A program made the position numbers and the translations under genes. 64,000 nt of DNA from Caulobacteraceae bacterium (GTDB taxonomy: Bacteria > Pseudomonadota > Alphaproteobacteria > Caulobacterales > Caulobacteraceae): NCBI GenBank assembly GCA_035604515.1, contig DATNIH010000040.1, positions 866 to 64,865 on the forward strand, in the 5' to 3' direction. Every line of letters begins with the position of its first letter. The first letter of the stretch is position 1. The notes under the pieces were generated by a model. That model did not search any database. It had not been told where the DNA came from and worked only from the letters and a program-made list of their open reading frames with translations. Shown here in pieces: positions 2,729 through 22,769 of the stretch.

Positions 2729-3637
2729 ATGACCCAGATCAGCCTCGCGCCGGGATCGATGCGCAACGCCGCCTTGCTGGAGCGGGCGGTCAAGGGCCGC
2801 AGCCTATGGGACGACGCGCGCCGGCGCCTGTTCCGCAACCGCGCCGCTGTCGCCAGCATGATCGTGCTGGGGCTGCTGGTGGTCTGCGCCCTGATCGGCC
2901 CGTTCGTGACCCCCTACGCCTACGACGAAATCAACAAGAACGACGTCTGGCTGGGCCCGCTCACCGGCGACCACCTGATCGGCTCCGACTCCCTGGGCCG
3001 CGACCTGCTGGCGCGCCTGTTCACCGGGCTCGGCGTCTCGCTGGCGATCGGGGCGGTGGCCACCACCGTCTCGCTGGTGATCGGCGTGGCCTGGGGCGCG
3101 ACGGCCGGCTACCTCGGCGGGATGGTCGACGAGGTGATGATGCGCATCGTCGATGTGCTCTATTCCCTGCCCTACATCTTCTTCGTCATCATCCTGATGG
3201 TGACCTTCGGCTCCAACTTCATTCTGCTGTTCATCGCCATCGGCGCGGTGGAGTGGCTGACCATGGCGCGGATCGTGCGCGGCCAGACCCTCTCCCTGAA
3301 ACAGAAGGAGTTCATCGAGGCGGCCAGGGCCGCGGGCCTGACCCGCCGGGCGATCATCGCCCGCCACATCGTGCCCAACCTGCTGGGACCGGTGGTGGTC
3401 TATGTGACGCTGACCATCCCGGGCGTGATCCTGGCCGAGAGCTTCCTCTCGTTCCTGGGCCTGGGCGTGCAGCCGCCGATGGCCTCGCTCGGCACCCTGA
3501 TCTCCAACGGCGCCCAGGACATGGAGCTGGCCCCCTGGCTGCTGATCTTCCCGTCGCTGACCATGGTGGTGACGCTGATGTGCTTCAACTTCATCGGCGA
3601 CGGCCTGCGCGACGCGATCGACCCGAAGGACCGGTAG
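2729..3637 (+). CDS. oppC: Oligopeptide ABC transporter permease OppC
   Basis: HLIGSDSLGRD, EFIEAARAAG (EAA loop), ESFLSFLGLGVQPP, GDGLRDAIDP. Confidence 0.9.
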   Translation: MTQISLAPGSMRNAALLERAVKGRSLWDDARRRLFRNRAAVASMIVLGLLVVCALIGPFVTPYAYDEINKNDVWLGPLTGDHLIGSDSLGRDLLARLFTGLGVSLAIGAVATTVSLVIGVAWGATAGYLGGMVDEVMMRIVDVLYSLPYIFFVIILMVTFGSNFILLFIAIGAVEWLTMARIVRGQTLSLKQKEFIEAARAAGLTRRAIIARHIVPNLLGPVVVYVTLTIPGVILAESFLSFLGLGVQPPMASLGTLISNGAQDMELAPWLLIFPSLTMVVTLMCFNFIGDGLRDAIDPKDR

Positions 3638-3682
3638 AGTTTCAACACCCGAACATCGACGCGCCGCAGGCGTCCAAAAGTA

Positions 3683-3767
3683 TGAACGCAGAGGTCGCAG
3701 AGCAGGCGCAGAGAGCGCTGAGGTGATCCTCCGCGAACTCCGCGTTCCTCTGCGGCCTCTGCGTTCA
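3683..3767. repeat. Intergenic inverted repeat, AACGCAGAG type
   Basis: 20-bp arms TGAACGCAGAGGTCGCAGAG (3683-3702) and CTCTGCGGCCTCTGCGTTCA (3748-3767), one mismatch. Confidence 0.85.
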
Positions 3768-3803
3768 AATCTTTACAGCGCCTGCGGCGCACTCAGGCCT
3801 ATG

Positions 3804-4334
3804 TCAGTTATCCCTATGCGCCCTGATCCCCGGCTGCTTGTCGACGCTCAGCATGTAGCTGCCGATCATCGCCCGGCGGATGACGATGGCCGAACCGGGG
3901 TGAGGATCGCGCGACAGGAACTCGTCGTCGATCTGCCGCCACACCGCGCCGTCCTGCATCACCATGATCCACTTGCCCTGGGGATCCTGGCGCGCGCTGG
4001 CCAGCGTCTCGTCGATGCTGTCGGTGTCCTCCGATTTCTCGCCGACGTCGAACATCGCCAGGCTGGGCAGGGTGAAGCCGAACGCCTGCTTGCGCACCGC
4101 CCGCCGCTGCGCCCGGTCCAAGGTCACGAGATCGCCGGAGGTCTGAGCCTTGGTCAGGGCGTCGGCAGCTGCGTCGTAGCAGGCGAGCCGCTGGACGCCG
4201 TCGTCGATCTTGCGGCAGTCGACCACGGCCTGCACCGTGGGCGCGACGGTCGGCGCGGGCCTGGCCGCCATCGCCGCCCCGCCGGCGGCCAGCGCCAGCG
4301 CAATGCCGCCAAAGACGTAACGAATCGAGACCAT
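3804..4334 (-). CDS. Exported hypothetical protein (C..I.D...RLACYD motif)
   Basis: Signal-peptide-like N-terminus from the ATG at 4334 (MVSIRYVFGGIALALAAGGAAMA); two Cys; C-terminal beta-rich segment. Confidence 0.75.
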   Translation of the reverse strand: MVSIRYVFGGIALALAAGGAAMAARPAPTVAPTVQAVVDCRKIDDGVQRLACYDAAADALTKAQTSGDLVTLDRAQRRAVRKQAFGFTLPSLAMFDVGEKSEDTDSIDETLASARQDPQGKWIMVMQDGAVWRQIDDEFLSRDPHPGSAIVIRRAMIGSYMLSVDKQPGIRAHRDN

Positions 4335-4703
4335 GGCCGGCTCCCTTTGGTAAAAACGATCTCTATTGAAGAGTTCTCTGGGCTTGTCGCGCAAGCCCTT
4401 GCCACAACCGAGGTTCGGCGACGGCCTGAGGCGTATTTTCGCCTGATTCAATCGAAGAAAATGCTTCTTTAACGCCTCGCCACGACGCAAATGCGCCCAA
4501 GCTGCGACGCCACGCGCAAGCTGTGACCTGAATGTAACAGGCGGGCGAACATGGGGTTACGCGGCCGTAATCCTCGTTGACCGGCCGACCAAGCAAGACC
4601 ATCACTGCCCCCAACCGGGGGGACTGCTACCCGGGACAACATGCAACCCGTATGCCGAGCCCCAGCCCGTCGGGGCGTGCTCGCGTTCCGGAGGGACAAT
4701 ACT

Positions 4704-7700
4704 TTGAAAATGAGCAACGTGCGTGGGCGCCTGCTGGCGTCGACAATGATCACGGGCGCCGCCCTGATCGCCATGGGCGGCCTGGCCCACGCCGCGGACG
4801 CCTCGTCCGCCGGCCCGATCCAGACCGCTTCCGGCCACGGCTCGGTGAGCGCCGCGGCGCCGATCCAGACCCTGACCGCCGCCGCTGACGCGACCGCTGA
4901 CACCACGTCGAGCACCGCTGTGACCGAGATCGTGGTCACCGGCTCGCGCATCCCACAGCCGAACCTCACCAGCGTCAGCCCGATCCAGGCGGTCAGTCAC
5001 CAGGAATTCCAGCTCACCGGTCACACCGACGTCATCGATCTGCTGAACACGCTGCCGCAGAACTTCCAGAACAATAAGAATGACTTCTCCAACACCAGCA
5101 ATCCGCTGAACGGGCCAGGCGGGGTCTCCACCGCCGACCTTCGCGGGCTTGGCCCGCAGCGGACCCTGGTGCTGGTCAACGGCCGGCGCCTTGGCATCGG
5201 CGATCCGGACACCGGGGACACCAATCCGGCCCCCGACCTCGACCAGATTCCGGTGGCGCTGATCGACCACGTCGAAGTGCTCACCGGCGGCGCGTCGGCG
5301 ACGTACGGTTCGGACGCCGTGGCCGGCGTCGTCAACTTCATCATGAAGAAGGACTTCGAGGGCGTTCAGGTCGACGGCCAGTACGGCGGCGACCAGCACA
5401 GCAACGGCAACACCGCCATGCAGCAGGCGATCACCACCACCGGCGGCGGCCATCCGGCGACCGGCGACAAGTGGGACGGCCAGAACACCGACTTCTCGGT
5501 CGTGTTCGGCGCCAACGCGCCGGACGGCAAGGGCAACGTCACCGGCTACTTCGAGTTCAAGAACGCCGAGCCCGTGACCGAAGGCGATCGCGACTACTCG
5601 GGCTGCCTCCTGACCATCGGGCCGCCCGACCGGTGCTCCAACTCGAGCAATTCGAACCTGTTCACGGAGATCGCCCCCACCCCTGGAACCGTGTTCTCAG
5701 TGGTCGGAACCTCGTTTCTCCCCCGCCCGCAGCCTGGTTCGGTGCCGCCGGCGACCTTCAACTCCAGCCCGTACGAGTTCCTGTCGCGGCAGGACACCCG
5801 CTACCTCGGCGGCTTCTTCGCCCACTACGACATCACCGACTGGGCCCAACCCTACGCCGAGTTCTCGTTCATGAACGACCGCTCGCTCACGCACGTCGCG
5901 CCGTCCGGCCTGTTCCAGGGCGGCGGCCTGGCGGCCGGCGCCAACGGCGGCTACTTCGTCAACTGCGGCAACCCGCTGCTCAGCGCGCAAGAGAGTGGCG
6001 CGCTGGGCTGTACGGCGGCGCAGATCGCGGGCGTTCAGACCGATCCAGCCAACCAGATCGATCTCCAGATCGGCCGCCGCAATATCGAGGGCGGTGGACG
6101 GGAATCAACCTACGATCACACCAACTATCGCATCGTGATCGGCATGAAGGGCGACTTCGCCGACGCCTGGCACTACGACGCCTACGGTTCGTACTACTAC
6201 ACGAGCCTGTTCAACTCGAATAACAACTACCTCAGCCTCGCTGGTATCCAGGATGCGCTGCTGGTGGGCGGCACGGCGGCGGCGCCGGTCTGCCTCAGCG
6301 GCAACCCGGCCTGCATTCCCTACAACATCTTCCAGCAAGGCGGCGTGACGCCGGCGCAGGTCGCCTCTCTCAACGAGAGCGGCACCGCGCACGGGACGAT
6401 CGAGGAAGAGATCTTCGAAGGCTTCGTCACCGGCGATCTTGGCAAGTACGGCGTCAAGTCGCCGTGGGCCGACGACGGCGTCGGCATCTCAATCGGCACG
6501 CAGCACCGCTGGGATCACCTGGTGTTCCAGCCGGACGCGGCCGAACTCTCGGGCGACCTCTCCGGCTTCGCCGGCGCCTCGGTGCCGGTCAACAATGCGA
6601 TCTCGGTGCAGGAAGAATACTTCGAGACCCGCATCCCGATCGTGCAGAAGAAGCCCTTCTTCGAGGATCTGAGCCTCGAGGGCGGCTACCGCTACTCCGA
6701 CTACTCCACCAGCGGCGCCGTCAGCACCTACAAGGTCGGTGGTGAGTGGGCGCCCATCCCGGACATCCGGTTCCGCGCCTCCTACGACCGCGCGATCCGG
6801 GCGGCGAGCATCATCGAGGCCTTCAGCCCGCAGTTTGTCACCAACACCAGCGACGTGTCGGTCGACCCCTGCGCGCCGGTCGGCGCCACGCCGGCGACAG
6901 CGACCCTGGCCCAGTGCATGCGCACTGGCGTCACCGCCGCCGAGTACGGCAACGGCGGCTCGACCGACACCATCCAGCAGTGCCCCGCCCAACAGTGCGC
7001 GGTGCTGGACGGCGGCAACAAGAATCTGGCGCCCGAAGTCTCCGACACCTACTCGATCGGGGCGACCGTAAGGCCCAGCTTCCTGCACGGCTTCAGCGGC
7101 AGCATCGACTACTTCAACATCACCATCAACGGTGAGATCGGCGTCGTGCCGCTGCCGACGTCGCTGAACAACTGCCTCAACACCGGCGACCCCACCTTCT
7201 GCGGCAACGTCGTGCGTAACCCGGTGGGCTTCCTGTTCGGCACCACCATCGCCGGCGGCGGCTACATTGTCGGCACCAACCAGAACGTGGCCGTGGTCCA
7301 GACCTCCGGCCTCGACTTCCAGGCCGACTATCGTCTGCCGCTGGAAGATGTCGGCGCCCCCGGCATGGGCTCGCTCTCGTTTGCATTCGTCGGCACCTAC
7401 TTGATGACCGACAAGAACCAGCCGCTGAAGGGCCAGCCGGAGTTCGATTGCGCCGGCCTGTTCGGTCCGACCTGCTCGCAGAACATCGGCTCCGACAACC
7501 CGGCCTGGCGGCACACGTTCCGGGTCACCTGGAACACGCCGTGGAACGTCCTGGCTTCGCTGCAGTGGCGCTACCTCAGCGCCACCACCCTGGACTCCAA
7601 CTCGACCCAACCTGGCCTCGGCGGTCCTGGCCTGCCAGGCGGCTTCGATGCGGCGAACAACGCGCTGGCATCGCGCAGCTACCTGGACCTTTCGGGCGCC

Positions 7701-11843: not shown

Positions 11844-13103
11844 CTATACCGCCACCACCGCCGCCTCTGACCGCTCGATGAAGTCGCGGATGCGGGGATA
11901 GATCTCGTCGTTGAAGCGGCGGCCGTTGAAGACGCCGTAGTGGCCGACTCGCGGCTGCACGTAGAGCTCGTGCAGGCCGTCCGGCAGGTTCGGCAGCATG
12001 GCGTGCACCGCCTGGGTCTGGCCGACGCCGGAGATGTCGTCGTTCTCGCCCTCGACGCTCATGGCCGCGACATCGCTGATCGCGGCGAGGTTCACCAGTC
12101 GGCCGCGGTGGGTCAGCTCGCCTTTCGGCAGCAGGTAGCGCTGGAACACGGTGTCGACGGTCTGCAGGTAGAATTCCTCGGTCAGGTCCAGCACCGAGAG
12201 ATATTCATCGTAGAACTCGCGGTGCTTCTCGGCCGAGTCGCCGTCGCCGCCGACCAGATGGTCGAAGTAGCGCTGGTGGGCCTCCTGGTGCTTCTCGGCG
12301 TTCATCGAGATGAAGCTGTAGAGCTGCACGAAACCCGGATAGACGCGCCGCAACATGCCCGGATAAGGCGCAGGCACGGTGTCGATCATCACGTGCTGGA
12401 ACCAGGAGAACGGCTTGTCCTCCGCCAGGCGGTTGGTGGCGGTGGGCGCGAAGCGTGCGTCGAGGGGCGAGCCAAGGAAGCTGATGCTGGCAGGCCGGTG
12501 CGGATCGCCCTCCTCGGCCAGCAGCGCCGCGGCGGCCAGCACCGGCGGGCCCGGCTGGCAGACCGCCACCACGTGCGCGCGCTCGCCGATGTGGCGCAGG
12601 ATCAGCTGGATCTGGTCGATGTAGTCGTTGAAGTCGAAGCGGCCCTCGATGATCGGCACGTCGCGGGCGTTGGCCCAGTCGGTGACGTAAACGTCGAAGT
12701 CCTGCAGGAAGGTCTGCACGGTGCCGCGCAGCAGCGTGGCGTAGTGGCCCGACAGCGGGGCGACGATCAGCAGCGGCGGCGCGGCCAGCGGCGCGCGGGC
12801 GCGGCGCAGGTCCAGCGGTTCGCGCGAGAACCGGCGCAGCTTCACCCAGGCGCTCGACCAGACCACCTCTTCACGCACCGCGACCGGACGCTGCTTCACC
12901 GTCGCCGTCTCGATGCCCCAGTCGGGACGGCCATAGCGGCGCGTCAGGTTGGAGAGCATCTCCGACGAGGCCATCAGTGTGCGCCCCCACTTCGAGGCGC
13001 TGGCCGGATTCAACGGCGAGCCCCAGAAGTCCCGCGCCGCCCGGGCGGCGTAACGCACCGGCGTCGCCGTGTTGTAGGCCGCTTCGTGGAGGGAATAGAG
13101 CAT
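11844..13103 (-). CDS. phaZ: Intracellular polyhydroxyalkanoate depolymerase
   Basis: LIVAPLSGHYATLLRGTV, VAVCQP (catalytic Cys), VEGENDDISG.GQT, GHYGVFNGRR. Confidence 0.93.
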   Translation of the reverse strand: MLYSLHEAAYNTATPVRYAARAARDFWGSPLNPASASKWGRTLMASSEMLSNLTRRYGRPDWGIETATVKQRPVAVREEVVWSSAWVKLRRFSREPLDLRRARAPLAAPPLLIVAPLSGHYATLLRGTVQTFLQDFDVYVTDWANARDVPIIEGRFDFNDYIDQIQLILRHIGERAHVVAVCQPGPPVLAAAALLAEEGDPHRPASISFLGSPLDARFAPTATNRLAEDKPFSWFQHVMIDTVPAPYPGMLRRVYPGFVQLYSFISMNAEKHQEAHQRYFDHLVGGDGDSAEKHREFYDEYLSVLDLTEEFYLQTVDTVFQRYLLPKGELTHRGRLVNLAAISDVAAMSVEGENDDISGVGQTQAVHAMLPNLPDGLHELYVQPRVGHYGVFNGRRFNDEIYPRIRDFIERSEAAVVAV

Positions 13104-13116
13104 CCGGATCCGAACT

Positions 13117-13128
13117 TTGTGCAGTGCA
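13117..13128 (-). promoter_or_regulatory. Putative PhaR operator upstream of phaZ
   Basis: Minus strand reads TGCACTGCACAA, fitting the rhizobial PhaR consensus as I recall it (TGCRNYGCASMA); 13 nt upstream of the phaZ start. Confidence 0.6.
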
Positions 13129-17859: not shown

Positions 17860-18987
17860 TTACTCCGCGGCGGCAAGTCGCAGGGCCGGGGCCCGGTCGC
17901 GGAAGTTGATGGCCTTCAGATAGACGATGCCCTCCTCGGCGATGTCGTCGCCGACCATGCGGTCGCCCTCGTTCTTCAGCTCCTCCATGTCGACGTACAT
18001 GCCGTAGAAGGCGCGGGTGCGGTCGGTGATGATGCCGGCGTTGAGCAGGGTCTTGATCAACACCCGGAAGATGTTGGTCGCTTCCTTCATGTCCTCGCGG
18101 CGGTTCTCGTCGGTGGCGATCTCGGCGAATTCGGCGATCACCCGGTCGGGGTCCATGCCGAACTCTTCGTAGAGGTCGCGCTGCTCGGAGGGGGCGACGA
18201 GGTTGAACAGCAGGGTCTGGAAGCAGTGCGCCGCCCAGTCCTCGATGATGATGTGCTCTTCCTCGGTCAGCTTCGGGATGGTCCGGTCGGCCCAGATCTT
18301 CCCGAACTTGTGGTGGAAGGCCTCGTCGGTCATCACCAGCTGCATCAGCTTGCGGCCGAGCGGGTCGTTGAGCTTCTGGTAGAAGGTGGCGAAGGCGCCC
18401 ATGGCCAGGCCCTCGACCAGCATCTGCATGCCGATGATCTTCTTGTAGACCTCCGGCGAGGAGATGATCTCCACCAGCAGGTTCTGCAGCACGGGGCTGG
18501 CGTTCACCGGCCGGCCCCAGCGGGCCTTGATGTACTTGGCGAAGGCCGTGACGTGGCGGGCTTCTTCGCGGGTCTGGTTGGCGGCGTATTCCTGCGCGCC
18601 CTGGTCGTAGAGCACGTGGCAGAGGCTGGCCGACAGGTTCAGCGCGCCTTGCTCGCCGTGCAGGATCGACGAGAACGAGCGCAGCGTCTGGGCGTTGATG
18701 AAGCGGATCCGGGTCTTCGGATCGGCCAGCATCTCCTTGCCGTAGTTGGTCTGCAGCACCCCGATCATTTCTTCGGGGAGCAGCGCCTCGTTCTCCATGT
18801 CGAACGGCTCGTCGAAGTCGATGTAGTCCTTCGACAGCGGATCCCAGAAGTGGTCGTGGGTGGCCGAGATGATCTTGTCGAACGCGGTCGAGCGATTGTT
18901 GTAGCGGTCGAGCTCGAGCATCGACTCGAAATCGTCCGGCGCGACTGCGCGATAGACTTCGTCCTTGGTGATATTTCCGTCGGCCAC
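17860..18987 (-). CDS. Ferritin-like diiron carboxylate protein, paralog 1
   Basis: E (HGEQG), ExxH (EEARH), E (LVEGLA), ExxH (DEAFH); GTG start with GGAGA RBS. Confidence 0.85.
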   Translation of the reverse strand: MADGNITKDEVYRAVAPDDFESMLELDRYNNRSTAFDKIISATHDHFWDPLSKDYIDFDEPFDMENEALLPEEMIGVLQTNYGKEMLADPKTRIRFINAQTLRSFSSILHGEQGALNLSASLCHVLYDQGAQEYAANQTREEARHVTAFAKYIKARWGRPVNASPVLQNLLVEIISSPEVYKKIIGMQMLVEGLAMGAFATFYQKLNDPLGRKLMQLVMTDEAFHHKFGKIWADRTIPKLTEEEHIIIEDWAAHCFQTLLFNLVAPSEQRDLYEEFGMDPDRVIAEFAEIATDENRREDMKEATNIFRVLIKTLLNAGIITDRTRAFYGMYVDMEELKNEGDRMVGDDIAEEGIVYLKAINFRDRAPALRLAAAE

Positions 18988-19135
18988 GGCGGTTCTCCGG
19001 GATGTGAGCAGCGTTTAGACCATGCCTGCGACGAACTCGCAGGTCAAGGAAAATGACGGGGGCGTCACGTTCTTGTCGACTGGCCGCCGCCGTGGTTTTC
19101 GCCGATAGTCGCCGGCGCGAAACAGCGGCAGGGTC

Positions 19136-20389
19136 ATGGCGCGGGGCGACGTGATGGTTCGATGGGCGCAGGGTTTGGCGTTGCTTCTGGCCCTCGCGCT
19201 CGCCGCCAGCGTCGCCGCCGCGCAGCCGACAGAGGCGCCCGCCAGCTGCGAGCGCGACGATGCGGACGCCACCATCGCCGCCTGCTCGGCTCAGATTTCC
19301 GCAGGCCAAGCGCCGGCTTCCAGCTACCAGACCCGGGCGGAGGCCTACGAGGGCAAGGGTCGATACCCTGAAGCCATCGCCGACCGCACTCAGGCGCTCG
19401 CCCTCAACCCCAAGGACTCCGAGGCTCTGGGCTGGCGCGCCATCGACTATGTCCATCTCGGCGACCGCCCGCACGCCATCACCGACTATCGCGCCTATCT
19501 CAAGCTGGACCCGGACGACGCCGACGGCGTCGGCGTCGAGGTGGCGCAGATCGCCTCGACGCCGGCGGCCGCCGCGAAGGATCCTCACAGCCTGGGCGCC
19601 GCGCTCGCCCACGACCCCGTCGCGCAATATGCGTCGCTCAAGGCGGTATTCGCCCAGATGGTCGACGTCAGGAGCGAAGGTCCCGCGCCTCGCGAGGCCA
19701 GGCGTGCCGCCGGAATCCACGACCTGATCGACTGCAAAGAGGGCGGAAGCTACCTCGGCGGTGTGGGGGACGACGCCAGTTTGGTCCCTATCGGGGATTA
19801 TGCGGACCTGGCCTATCAGACCGCCAGTTGGACGCGGCGGCTGCAGGCGATGAGCTATCCGCAGGCGGCCTGGGGGCCGCTGATCGACCGGTTCGAGAAG
19901 GCTCAGATCGCACGGATCCAGCACGAACAGGACGCCGCCCCGGCCGCTCGGCCGGCGAACGCGGATGACCAGTCGAGCGATGAGCAGGCAGGCGACGACC
20001 TGCGCGACGCGCAGGACGCCTTCGCGACCAATTTGGCCAAGACGCTGAACGCCTATCGCCGCGCCCACCCGTCGCTTCACCTGCCGCCGCTGAAGGCGGA
20101 AGGCGGCTGCGGCGCCGTCTCGACCGTGGTCAACGTCAGGAGCCAGCCGGCGGGCGCGGTGGTGATGTTCATCCCGGTGTTCTTCTACAAGCTCTGCCAG
20201 GCGGAGGGCATCAATCCCGACGACACCAATCGGTGCGACCGCTGGCGCGAGATGGTGGACGGCGTCGTCGCCGACGTCAGCGGCGACTACGACTACGTCG
20301 CCCACTGGGCGGATGGCGCGATCCGGAAGGGCCGGTTGAGCCTTAACGCGGTTCAGAACGGGGCCACCATCACACTGGTCAAGCCGTAG
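19136..20389 (+). CDS. Exported TPR-repeat protein with an uncharacterised Cys-containing C-terminal domain
   Basis: Signal peptide (alternative ATG 19154); about two TPR units (AEAYEGKGRYPEAIAD.TQALALNP; RAIDYVHLGD..HAI.DY..YLKLDP). Confidence 0.8.
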   Translation: MARGDVMVRWAQGLALLLALALAASVAAAQPTEAPASCERDDADATIAACSAQISAGQAPASSYQTRAEAYEGKGRYPEAIADRTQALALNPKDSEALGWRAIDYVHLGDRPHAITDYRAYLKLDPDDADGVGVEVAQIASTPAAAAKDPHSLGAALAHDPVAQYASLKAVFAQMVDVRSEGPAPREARRAAGIHDLIDCKEGGSYLGGVGDDASLVPIGDYADLAYQTASWTRRLQAMSYPQAAWGPLIDRFEKAQIARIQHEQDAAPAARPANADDQSSDEQAGDDLRDAQDAFATNLAKTLNAYRRAHPSLHLPPLKAEGGCGAVSTVVNVRSQPAGAVVMFIPVFFYKLCQAEGINPDDTNRCDRWREMVDGVVADVSGDYDYVAHWADGAIRKGRLSLNAVQNGATITLVKP

Positions 20390-21455
20390 GCCGCTGGGGC
20401 CCGGCGCGCGCGGGCGGCGCGGAACGCTGGTGCAGCACCAGGAAACCGCCAGCCAGCACGCCGAGCGCGATGAAGCCCCCAAACCACAGTACGCCGAGAC
20501 CGGCGGTCACCTCGCCGATCGAGCCCGGGGTCCAGAGGTAGCCGGCGTTGTATTCGGCGCCGGCGAGCTCATCGGGTCCGAGAGCCGGGCATTTGTCCTT
20601 GTAGACCAGCAGCGCGTCCTTGGTGCACTCGAAGCCCTTGGCCGAGAGGCGATCGGCCTTCGGCGGCTGGTAGGCGTAGAGCGAGGCGCCGGCGGCGTAG
20701 CCGGCGCCGGCCAGCAGGGCCACCGCGCCGGCGACGATCATGATCAGGCGAACCAGCCGCAAGGCCGCGTCGTCCGATAGGCGGTGGACGATCAGCACGG
20801 CCAGCGCGCAGACGATCGCCGTCAGCGGCGCGGCCGCTGGCGGCCAGGGCGGGGTGAGCACGCCGAGCGCGGCGACGAACGGCAGCGCGACGACGCCGGC
20901 GGCCGGCGCCAGCCCAAGCGCTAGATGCTGCAGGCGCTCGCCCCCGGGCGCCCTCGGGCTGGTCGCGGCAGCCGGGGGCGGCGCCTTGCCGTGTTTCTTG
21001 GCCAGGAGTGTGTCTATGGACGCGATGAGCCGGTCCATGTGGACGTGGAAGTCGCGGCCGGTGGCGATCGTGGCGGCGTTCAGAAAGTGCAGCGGCGCGA
21101 TGCTGTCGGGCAGCGCCTCGGCCGCCGGCATGTGTGCGCCGTCGACCAGCAGCGGGATCAGCGGCAGGCCGAGCTGCAGCGCGGTTTCCACCTCCGCCCG
21201 CACCACGTCCTTCGGCTCGTCGATACGCCGGCCGCCGTCGGCATGTTCGCCCAGCCAGTCACGCCCGATCACCGCCAGGAAGACGTCGCTGCGGCGCAGG
21301 ACCTCTTGAATGTGGTCGCGAAAATCGCTGCCGTAGGGGATGCTGTCGATGTCGATGAACACCGCCTCGGCGCCGTAGCGCGCGGTCAGGCGATCGGCGA
21401 TCCGTCCAGTGATCGCGGCGGAGTCCGCGCGTCGGTAGGAGACGACAATCGAGAT
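20379..21455 (-). CDS. TIR (TIR_2-like) domain protein with about four C-terminal transmembrane helices
   Basis: Frame extends upstream of the tracked GTG to SIVVSYRRADS; VFIDIDSIPYGSDF, LAVIGRDW, VRAEVETAL (catalytic Glu position), LIPLLVDGA.MP; the start appears to be ATC at 21455. Confidence 0.85.
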   Translation of the reverse strand: MSIVVSYRRADSAAITGRIADRLTARYGAEAVFIDIDSIPYGSDFRDHIQEVLRRSDVFLAVIGRDWLGEHADGGRRIDEPKDVVRAEVETALQLGLPLIPLLVDGAHMPAAEALPDSIAPLHFLNAATIATGRDFHVHMDRLIASIDTLLAKKHGKAPPPAAATSPRAPGGERLQHLALGLAPAAGVVALPFVAALGVLTPPWPPAAAPLTAIVCALAVLIVHRLSDDAALRLVRLIMIVAGAVALLAGAGYAAGASLYAYQPPKADRLSAKGFECTKDALLVYKDKCPALGPDELAGAEYNAGYLWTPGSIGEVTAGLGVLWFGGFIALGVLAGGFLVLHQRSAPPARAGPQRPTA

Positions 21456-21508
21456 GGCGGCCTCCGATACGCCGATGGCGTCGCATCGAAGTCATACTGG
21501 AGCGCGCC

Positions 21509-21534
21509 GCCGGCGCCGTCGAGGCGGCGCCGGC
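21509..21534. terminator. GC hairpin between diiron paralog 2 and the TIR gene
   Basis: GCCGGCGCCG-tcgagg-CGGCGCCGGC, a perfect 10-bp stem with no U tract. Confidence 0.35.
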
Positions 21535-21543
21535 CGACCGACG

Positions 21544-22677
21544 CTACTCCGCCGCCACCAGCTGGGCGGCGCCGCGTTCGGCGCTTTCCTTGAAGTTGAT
21601 GGTCTGCAGGAAGCGGATGCCGTCCTCGGCGATGTCGTCGCCAACCATGCGGGTCCCTTCGGCCTGCAGCTCGTCCATGTCGACGTACATGGCGTAGAAG
21701 CCGCGGGTGCGCTGGGTGATCAGGCCGGCGTTGAACAGCGTCTTGATCAGCACCCGGAAGATGTTGGTCTCGCCCTTGAAGCGGCGGGTCGGATCGCGCT
21801 CGGCGCGGCGCTTGATGATGTCCTCGATCACCCGCTGCGGGTCGAGCCCGAAGTCCTCGTACAGCCCCCGCTGCTGGTCGGGCGAGCCGCGGTCGAACAA
21901 CAGGCTCTGGGCGCAGTGCGCGGCCCAGTCCTCGACGATGTTGCGCTCGGATTCGCTGAGCTGCGGCACGGTCTTGTCGGCCCAGATCTTCCCGAACTTG
22001 TGGTGGAACGCCTCGTCGGTCATGACCAGCTGGAACAGCTTGCGGGCCAGCGGGTCGCGGTTGGTGCGGAATCCCGTGGCGAAGGCGCCCATGGCCAGAC
22101 CCTCCACCAGCATCTGCATGCCGATGATCTTCTTGTAGACCTCAGGCGCCTCGATGATGTCGATCAGCAGCTTCTGCAGCGCCGCGCCACACGGGCCCGG
22201 CCGACCCCAGCGGGCCTTGATGTACTTGGCGAAGGCCGTGACGTGGCGGGCTTCCTCGCGGGTCTGGTTGGCGGCGTATTCCTGCGCGCCCTGGTCGTAG
22301 AGTACGTGGCAGAGGCTGGCCGACAGGTTCAGCGCGCCCTGCTCGCCGTGAAGGATCGAGGAGAAGTTGGCGAGCTGCCCGCGGTTGATGAAGCGGATCC
22401 GCTCCTTCGGGTCGGTCAGCGTCTCGGCCACGTAGGGCAGCTTGAGGAACGGGTTGTTCTCCTCCGGCGTCATCGCGACATTTTCCATGTCGAACGGCGT
22501 GTCGAAGTCGATGTAGCGCTTATCGAGCGGGTCCCAGAAGTGGTCGTGGGTGGCCGCGATGATCTTGTCGAACGCGTCCGAGCGCTGCCCATAACGGTCG
22601 AGCTGGAGCATGGATTCGAAGTCGTCCGGCGGCACCGCGCCGTACATGGAATCCTTGGTGATGTTCCCGTCGGCCAT
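21544..22677 (-). CDS. Ferritin-like diiron carboxylate protein, paralog 2
   Basis: Same ligand set as 17860-18987; a 56-aa block is identical between the two; ATG at 22677 with GGAGA RBS. Confidence 0.85.
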   Translation of the reverse strand: MADGNITKDSMYGAVPPDDFESMLQLDRYGQRSDAFDKIIAATHDHFWDPLDKRYIDFDTPFDMENVAMTPEENNPFLKLPYVAETLTDPKERIRFINRGQLANFSSILHGEQGALNLSASLCHVLYDQGAQEYAANQTREEARHVTAFAKYIKARWGRPGPCGAALQKLLIDIIEAPEVYKKIIGMQMLVEGLAMGAFATGFRTNRDPLARKLFQLVMTDEAFHHKFGKIWADKTVPQLSESERNIVEDWAAHCAQSLLFDRGSPDQQRGLYEDFGLDPQRVIEDIIKRRAERDPTRRFKGETNIFRVLIKTLFNAGLITQRTRGFYAMYVDMDELQAEGTRMVGDDIAEDGIRFLQTINFKESAERGAAQLVAAE

Positions 22678-22769
22678 GGCGGTCTCTCCCAGCGTGCTCT
22701 GGAGTAACATGATCAAAGTTCACCTGGAGGTCGCGGTTGTCAACGGCCGTTGAGTTGCGTGCGGCGTTG

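Follow-up and report, generated by a model that had tools for sequence, protein, structure and literature searches.

The gene pair and its insertion site

The window analyzed here, a stretch of 64,000 nucleotides (nt) from a Caulobacteraceae genome to which all coordinates below refer, contains a cassette of two convergent genes that we consider as a possible envelope-side sensor. One gene encodes a membrane protein with an N-terminal TIR domain and four membrane helices (hereafter the TIR-4TM protein), and the other encodes an exported protein with tetratricopeptide repeats (TPR) and a C-terminal domain bearing four Cys residues (hereafter the X domain). An earlier note on this DNA had located the two genes and had described their convergence and an 11-nt overlap at their 3' ends, all of which were indeed present on the sequence, as listed below.

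19136..20389, plus strand: gene of the exported TPR and X-domain protein, 417 amino acids (aa) (open reading frame (ORF), Pfam TPR models, homologues)
20379..21455, minus strand: gene of the TIR-4TM protein (358 aa when read from the ATC at 21455)
20379..20389: convergent 3'-end overlap of 11 nt (positions of the two stop codons)
21453..21465, minus strand: likely non-canonical start, with GGAGG at 21461-21465, a 5-nt spacer and ATC at 21453-21455 (sequence reading)
19070..21497: inserted cassette of about 2.43 kb, comprising these two genes only (blastn and MAFFT against the same-genus genome G024, locus L037)

The borders of the cassette were defined by comparison with G024, to which the homology ended at window position 19069 and returned at about 21497-21544 in both the blastn and MAFFT alignments. 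In G024, the corresponding site was empty, with the same two flanking AurF-like paralogues lying 186 nt apart and nothing in between; the cassette thus lies exactly between tandem diiron-enzyme paralogues. The GC content at third codon positions was 0.86 and 0.88 in the two cassette genes versus 0.94-0.95 in the flanking genes. The membrane domain was present as a single copy in its own genome (profile A2, E 7.5e-68 on the window gene), and a profile search detected it in none of 40 relatives, 24 of which belong to the same genus. Apart from GC-rich matches attributable to chance, the cassette ends showed neither direct nor inverted terminal repeats, and we found no insertion sequence element, mobile-element gene or tRNA. 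The cassette is a horizontally acquired, foreign two-gene insert, and the empty site together with the absence from all 40 relatives bore out the earlier description of an accessory cassette amid core genes.

On the minus strand, the frame of the TIR-4TM gene extends without interruption from about 21491 to its stop codon, TGA, at 20379-20381, and none of ATG, GTG or TTG occurs between the in-frame upstream stop (about 21493-21495) and GTG 21362. Coordinate 21455, from which the earlier note had read the gene, falls on an ATC codon, a caveat that was passed over there; the frame and the homology from this position were borne out, and only the canonical start codon is absent. A start at GTG 21362, as chosen by the public gene calls (P0001, 327 aa), would drop the first strand and helix of the TIR domain, and 15 full-length homologues (43-50% identical) begin with M-x-K-I-L-I-SYRR where the window protein has A-I-S-I-V-V-SYRR. 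With GGAGG placed 5 nt ahead of it and an ATT two codons after it, the ATC is likely the start of the gene, although a weak one. Neither gene is a chance ORF, given these homologues of the membrane protein and those of the exported protein in many loci.

The lack of ATG, GTG or TTG at the homologous start, as well as a convergent layout in place of the co-directional one of the other loci first found, could be taken as signs of a silent or decaying copy. This possibility seems improbable, however, given that both frames are intact, that the GGAGG is retained, and that the protein agrees with its family at all 22 columns conserved in at least 80% of the members. Moreover, the convergent overlap, which no other locus of the first collection showed, was encountered again in L060 (the contig of the protein P0038). 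There, an X gene whose product is only 46% identical to the window X protein converges with a gene ending in a helix-4 homologue, and the two share 20 nt. Because the layout recurs there, convergence is a trait of the TPR-bearing sub-lineage rather than a sign of local damage.

The genes flanking the cassette, both outside the module, are as follows.

17860..18987, minus strand: AurF-like diiron protein gene, paralogue 1 (Pfam AurF below cut-off; kept in same-genus genomes)
21544..22716, minus strand: AurF-like diiron protein gene, paralogue 2 (71% identical to paralogue 1)

The remaining genes of the window are housekeeping genes. In line with the earlier reading, a PADLOC scan of the 52 window ORFs revealed no ThsA-like effector or cyclase; it returned a weak ThsB-like match (the TIR itself), mad2 and an ABC permease, and no others. 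The mad2 match (mads_2) was found in one ORF with E 1.7e-26.

Domains and membrane topology of the two proteins

The TIR-4TM protein is composed of the following parts.

20991..21455, minus strand: cytoplasmic SARM1-like TIR domain, aa 1-155 (Pfam TIR_2, phmmer, Foldseek)
21192-21194, minus strand: codon of the catalytic-type Glu88 (aligned to the SARM1 Glu)
20421..20939, minus strand: four-helix membrane domain, aa 173-345, with a PPWPP turn at aa 202-206 (AlphaFold2, profile A2)
20529..20675, minus strand: predicted periplasmic 49-aa loop, aa 261-309, with C277 (20625-20627) and C289 (20589-20591) (alignment, model)

Pfam TIR_2 (PF13676) matched residues 3-119 of the 358-aa product well above its cut-off (48.4 bits against 28, E 1.6e-12), and the motifs SYRRADS, FIDIDSIPYG, AVIGRDW and VRAEVETAL, by which the earlier note had recognized an N-terminal TIR domain with a Glu, were all found in the translation. 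The phmmer search identified SARM1 TIR domains as the closest solved relatives by sequence (E 5e-5), and Glu88 of VRAE88VETAL aligned with the Glu of the SARM1 motif KDWVHKEIVTAL, which we take to be the catalytic E642. Both E88 and E90 were invariant across the 15 full-length homologues. An AlphaFold2 model of the whole protein, built from a 102-sequence alignment with a mean predicted local distance difference test score (pLDDT) of 92.8, adopted a flavodoxin-like TIR fold with pLDDT >90 over this domain, and Foldseek matched it to the SARM1 TIR with a TM-score of 0.86 (E 2e-7). Judging from this fold and the position of the catalytic Glu, the TIR domain is probably of the NADase type.

Among other loci, L003-L026 encode TIR domains 45-60% identical to that of the window, mostly followed by at least one transmembrane (TM) helix near residue 170-230. 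Their extracytoplasmic tails are diverse, and the 465-aa proteins of L005 and L007 contain a TPR-like segment; membrane tethering thus seems typical for this TIR subfamily. The window's own genome (G000) yielded 25 TIR_2 matches versus 0-16 in same-genus relatives, partly clustered, with three on contig C55 and others, for example, on C33, C131, C218 and C261 (loci L054-L059), which suggests a lineage-specific expansion of TIR proteins. One of them, L056, is a TIR fused to a formylglycine-generating-enzyme-like domain.

Behind the TIR domain, a Pro/Ala linker leads to the four-helix bundle, the helices of which were modelled at residues 173-197, 208-227, 232-260 and 310-345. The PPWPP turn joins helices 1 and 2, and a structured two-Cys loop (residues 261-309) lies between helices 3 and 4; the model therefore agreed with the linker, the approximately four hydrophobic helices and the roughly 50-aa loop with two Cys that had been outlined from the sequence. 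The orientation of the bundle could be deduced from its fusions: the TIR is located at the N-terminus in most fused relatives and at the C-terminus in P0163, P0188 and P0127, and a CHAT domain is located at the C-terminus of the four-helix domain in L029 and P0071. Because cytoplasmic enzymes are fused to either end, both termini are most probably cytoplasmic, and with both ends inside, the PPWPP turn and the Cys loop would therefore face the periplasm. The mean numbers of Lys plus Arg over 102 family members, namely 2.5 in the loop between helices 2 and 3, 2.9 in the C-terminal tail and 0.27 in the PPWPP loop, agreed with the positive-inside rule. Both lines of evidence are consistent with the earlier placement of the TIR domain in the cytoplasm and the Cys loop outside. 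Almost all family-conserved columns of the membrane domain fall on its periplasmic side.

The four-helix domain matched no family in Pfam, NCBIfam or PADLOC, and in Foldseek all PDB matches of the TIR-4TM model were TIR domains, leaving the four-helix part without a match. Two known types of four-helix membrane protein were considered and rejected. A thiol oxidoreductase of the DsbB/VKOR type was dismissed because the CXXC pair is absent from the first periplasmic loop; this loop reads TPPWPP without Cys, and C277 and C289 are the sole invariant Cys residues of the membrane protein. As for a membrane effector of the S-4TM/SLATT type, Pfam at E ≤ 0.1 gave TIR_2 only for the window protein, and nothing for one stand-alone member of the family.

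The exported protein consists of three parts.

19136..19222, plus strand: predicted Sec signal peptide, aa 1-29, with an AAA/QP cleavage motif (read from the sequence)
19262..19525, plus strand: short TPR region, aa 43-130 (Pfam TPR_2/TPR_1/TPR_16; Foldseek TPR probability ~1.0)
19583..20386, plus strand: X domain, aa 150-417, helical bundle and C-terminal beta-sandwich (alignment A4, AlphaFold2)

Read by eye, its N-terminus, MARGDVMVRWAQGLALLLALALAASVAAA/QP, begins with a positive n-region, followed by a hydrophobic core of 17 residues and then an AAA/QP site, and all aligned X homologues likewise start with a hydrophobic export leader, several of them with a lipobox-like Cys. The only Pfam models to match the protein were TPR models, within residues 61-130; at residues 63-94, TPR_2 scored 40.5 bits (cut-off 27, E 1.8e-10) and TPR_1 35.1 bits (cut-off 27.8). 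The earlier note had described a signal-peptide TPR protein with a Cys-containing C-terminal domain, of which the TPR and the four Cys were confirmed and the leader is a prediction read from the sequence. The TPR arm was missing in 16 of the 17 aligned partner homologues and present in part in the closest relative, P0038, and on this alignment it appears to be a lineage-specific add-on.

The X domain, in turn, retained its four Cys residues (C200, C325, C354 and C367) invariantly across 18 aligned partner proteins. The AlphaFold2 model of the exported protein (18 sequences, mean pLDDT 76) had pLDDT >80 over most of residues 150-417 and low values at 98-142; in it, a helical bundle spans about 153-310, and a beta-sandwich forms the C-terminal end (330-415). 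No model of Pfam, NCBIfam or PADLOC matched the X domain, and no fold in the PDB or BFVD did so below E 0.01 in Foldseek, the TPR matches of the N-terminal arm aside; the C-terminal beta-sandwich gave weak matches (E 0.06-0.12) to carboxypeptidase-regulatory/transthyretin-like domains. The invariant residues in the 18-sequence alignment formed no enzymatic motif, and from its modelled fold X may be read as a binding module.

A Sec-exported, disulfide-rich protein beside a small polytopic membrane protein, both horizontally spread, is a layout that resembles toxin-immunity pairs, so that X might be a secreted toxin or bacteriocin-like protein and the four-helix protein its immunity protein. We regard this explanation as very unlikely. 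Several X homologues bear the lipobox-like leaders described above, which suggests retention in the envelope; X lacks an enzymatic or pore-forming signature; across phyla, the two partners show strong conservation instead of diversification; and TIR or CHAT domains would be unexpected on immunity proteins. This explanation and that of a silent copy both rank as less likely than the two further alternatives weighed below, in which the four-helix protein is an effector or the pair has a housekeeping role.

A conserved pair with exchangeable cytoplasmic domains

To survey the pairing, genome contigs were scanned with profiles and by tblastn, and 16 metagenome loci were then added; the pairing was scored in 22 loci besides the window using hidden Markov models (HMMs) of both domains together with blastp clustering. 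The earlier note had named as adverse to its proposal the outcome that homologues of the two genes do not occur together across genomes. Instead, the X domain adjoined the membrane domain in 18 of the 22 loci, and the window X domain itself matched the X-domain HMM with E 2.5e-103. Many loci have the TIR alone in common with the window, and some the membrane domain alone. The conserved partnership is that of the four-helix domain with the four-Cys X domain, in which neither the TPR nor the TIR is involved; the pairing first proposed for the two genes has therefore held, and its conserved partner is the C-terminal four-Cys domain and not the TPR. These loci are derived from Alphaproteobacteria, Lysobacteraceae (Gammaproteobacteria), Desulfobulbaceae, Acidobacteriota (Vicinamibacterales, Pyrinomonadaceae and Thermoanaerobaculia) and Vulcanimicrobiota. 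In stand-alone pairs, the X gene lies upstream and the genes overlap, by ATGA in L027 and by 23 nt in L033.

No third conserved gene emerged from all-against-all clustering of 871 neighbouring ORFs or from a Pfam/PADLOC census of 115 neighbours, and some relatives adjoin other TIR, patatin, PIN and STAND genes. On two contigs, L047 (5455-6477) and L050 (4324-5388), TIR-4TM genes stand beside a patatin-like phospholipase, a TIR-TM protein and a further TIR ORF, a setting that resembles a defence island. In L001, a second protein of the same TIR subfamily is encoded after the TIR-4TM/X pair (12002-13117, plus strand), and it comprises a TIR, a Pro-rich linker, one TM helix and a periplasmic tail that resembles, by eye, the SH3 type; an nSTAND NTPase-TPR gene lies upstream (3412-5226).

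The membrane-domain profile matched 648 representative clusters, defined at 50% identity, with E ≤ 1e-3; at the stricter limit of 1e-10, it matched 360. Architectures were counted on the 118 complete sequences among the best 149 matches. The majority of these (86 of 118, ~73%) were stand-alone proteins of ~195 aa with only ~25 cytoplasmic residues, while N-terminal extensions of at least 120 aa were present in 23, those of 55-119 aa in 5, and C-terminal extensions in 4. Pfam annotation of 38 long members identified TIR_2 in 22, ThsB_TIR in 3, TIR in 2, DUF4062 in 2, EAD1 in 1 and CHAT in 1. On a FastTree phylogeny of 119 domains, the fused or unfused state changed at least 10 times (shuffled mean 25), and at least 6-7 of these changes were forced by well-supported branches. 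Because the cytoplasmic heads have been gained or lost repeatedly, the module is best described as a constant periplasm-facing pair with swappable heads. Since most complete members are headless, the core pair must act without the TIR, and since most lack a TIR, the "TIR receptor" of the earlier note, a label that fits the window protein and not the majority of its membrane family, is one variant of a broader two-gene module.

Further architectural features were observed in single members of the family. The four-helix domains of L029 (9779-12478), P0071 and L051 (5161-8595) carry long C-terminal regions, and the L051 protein, of 1145 aa, had no Pfam match. The stand-alone four-helix proteins, such as those of L027 (9938-10540) and L033 (9935-10504), and the N-terminus of that of L029 have in common an amphipathic segment of ~25 residues before helix 1, with the motif G-L-x-D-F-K-x-L-L-K-E-F-R-x-L-S-x-W, to which an unlinked partner in the cytoplasm could dock.

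The predominance of small stand-alone members raises the possibility that the effector is the four-helix protein, which would disturb the membrane upon release, with X as a periplasmic sensor or brake and the heads as a second effector or adaptor. Effectors that span the membrane are a common feature of CBASS, Pycsar and Thoeris-type systems (10.64898/2025.12.03.692087), and the 86 stand-alone representatives have little else to offer on the cytoplasmic side than their ~25 residues. Nevertheless, the conservation lies on the periplasmic face and not within the helices, and no likeness to S-4TM, SLATT or KwaA models was detected with Pfam and PADLOC; we therefore consider this alternative unlikely, although it is the strongest of those weighed here.

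Nearly the same standing, or slightly less, is given to an ordinary role of the pair in the envelope, in which a disulfide-bonded periplasmic protein and its membrane anchor would serve housekeeping or structural needs outside any conflict, with the TIR as a scaffold or regulatory part. The lack of effector heads in most members, the ordinary metabolic genes in many neighbourhoods, and the lack of any defence-database match in PADLOC, for which the 115 neighbouring ORFs were also checked, would fit such a role. It is, however, difficult to reconcile with a module that is missing from 40 of 40 relatives and entered as a foreign cassette, with the repeated swapping of heads, and with the nature of the attached heads (TIR with a catalytic-type Glu, CHAT, EAD1 and DUF4062), which are typical of conflict systems.

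A possible envelope-side sensor and its relation to known systems

We are about evenly divided on the reading that we prefer, in which the window encodes an envelope-side sensor pair controlling a cytoplasmic NADase. At rest, X would dock onto the periplasmic face of the four-helix domain, presumably through contact with the Cys loop, and hold the complex inactive. An event at the envelope would alter this contact, the candidates being adsorption or injection by a phage, damage to the wall or membrane, and the capture of a ligand by X or by the TPR arm. The membrane units would then cluster, allowing the cytoplasmic TIR domains to self-associate and cleave NAD+, and the outcome may be growth arrest, abortive infection or an ADP-ribose-derived signal. 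In relatives, a CHAT protease, an EAD1 adaptor or DUF4062 would take the place of the TIR on this periplasmic pair, or the pair would operate headless. TIR, CHAT, EAD1 and DUF4062 all belong to the effector and adaptor domains found in conflict systems (PMC7159879).

Several observations weigh against this sensor reading. Most complete family members (~73%) carry no cytoplasmic head, and 4 of the 22 other loci are without X. Among these four, L031 ends 272 nt upstream, on the side where X would be, and L041 begins at the contig edge, with no X within 5 kb downstream; L047 and L050 are related contigs of one metagenome with both flanks present and no X. X has no ligand-binding or enzymatic fold recognizable by Foldseek in the PDB and BFVD, and no PADLOC model matched beyond the weak ThsB-like match of the TIR. 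The neighbourhoods are mixed rather than clear defence islands, and a scan with the 4TM profile gave no relative on viral contigs, by which a phage origin was also rejected. Finally, the window genes are convergent and not operonic, and the TIR gene has only ATC or ATT as a start.

Among known systems, SARM1/TIR-1 provided the best sequence and fold match of the window TIR, with the SYRR start motif and the position of the catalytic Glu in common. SARM1 is, however, a soluble ARM-SAM-TIR octamer regulated by nicotinamide mononucleotide and NAD+, whereas the window TIR, ~21% identical to it, is membrane-tethered and has an exported partner. Thoeris resembles the window pair in its bacterial TIR with a catalytic-type Glu, and the window TIR weakly matched the ThsB and ThcB4 models. 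In contrast to the window pair, Thoeris TIRs are cytoplasmic sensors, and the described systems have no exported partner; the text of the paper on Thoeris types I-XI contains neither "periplasm" nor "signal peptide" (10.64898/2025.12.03.692087). Thoeris itself was rejected, as the cassette consists of two genes and no ThsA-type effector (SIR2/SLOG, Macro-TM and others) accompanies the TIR gene or occurs anywhere else in the window. An effector of CBASS or Pycsar was likewise rejected, with no PADLOC match to a CD-NTase or pyrimidine cyclase in the window or in the 115 neighbouring ORFs of related loci.

Kiwa, composed of the KwaA membrane tetramer and KwaB, offers a functional analogy for outside-in sensing, as its small polytopic membrane protein is reported to sense phage-induced membrane changes and to control a cytoplasmic effector (10.1101/2023.02.26.530102). 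The partner is cytoplasmic in Kiwa, whereas in the window pair the partner is exported and the effector fused, and Kiwa as such was rejected, with no KwaA or KwaB (DUF4868) match in PADLOC at E ≤ 0.1. On the reading preferred here, the window pair would work most like an envelope-sensing Kiwa counterpart with a fused SARM1-type effector.

The EAD1-coupled and membrane-associated conflict systems of Kaur, Burroughs, Iyer & Aravind (2020, PMC7159879) likewise have a constant module with swappable TIR, CHAT/caspase and EAD1 domains. One four-helix family member carries EAD1, and the two groups appear alike in their sporadic, horizontally spread distribution. EACC1, a component of the membrane "System 4" of that paper, has a single TM helix as against four here; neither the four-helix Cys-loop domain nor the X domain is mentioned in the passages searched, and the paper does not use the term 4TM. 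Animal Toll-like and IL-1 receptors provide an analogy only, through a layout in which recognition takes place outside the cytoplasm and is joined across the membrane to a TIR on the cytoplasmic side; they differ from the window pair, in which recognition would reside on a separate exported protein, the membrane is spanned by four helices, and the TIR is of the SARM1-type enzymatic class rather than a scaffold.

The module as defined here comprises a PPWP turn, a C-x11-C loop and a four-Cys exported neighbour, and the window pair fits this definition. Literature searches on bacterial TIR systems linked to the membrane or the periplasm yielded no account of such a pair, although such searches are no proof of absence. 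On the preferred reading, the cassette would be a conflict or signalling system of the TIR type, a known kind, whose two-part envelope sensor is undescribed. More tentatively, and with less confidence than we place in the sensor itself, the four-helix and X domains could represent an unrecognized and widespread family of outside-in receptors of diderm bacteria, in which a periplasmic recognition subunit sits on a membrane transducer. Different death or signalling heads would have been added to it repeatedly, and what it reads would be events at the envelope and not those in the cytoplasm; it might, by analogy and at the same tentative level, be viewed as a split prokaryotic counterpart of the Toll-like receptor layout.

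As neither core domain has a curated model or a solved fold, naming both would annotate many gene pairs now listed as hypothetical, and the cassette, being small (two genes, 2.4 kb), lends itself to direct testing in laboratory strains. The swapped TIR, CHAT and EAD1 heads on one transducer constitute a natural experiment on signal transfer from the periplasm to the cytoplasm. In the bacterial TIR systems known so far, among them Thoeris, CBASS effectors and TIR-STING, infection is sensed within the cell. If the sensor reading is true, the coupling of a TIR NADase across the membrane to an exported partner would shift this sensing to the envelope, a level at which it is little known beyond systems such as Kiwa and Zorya.

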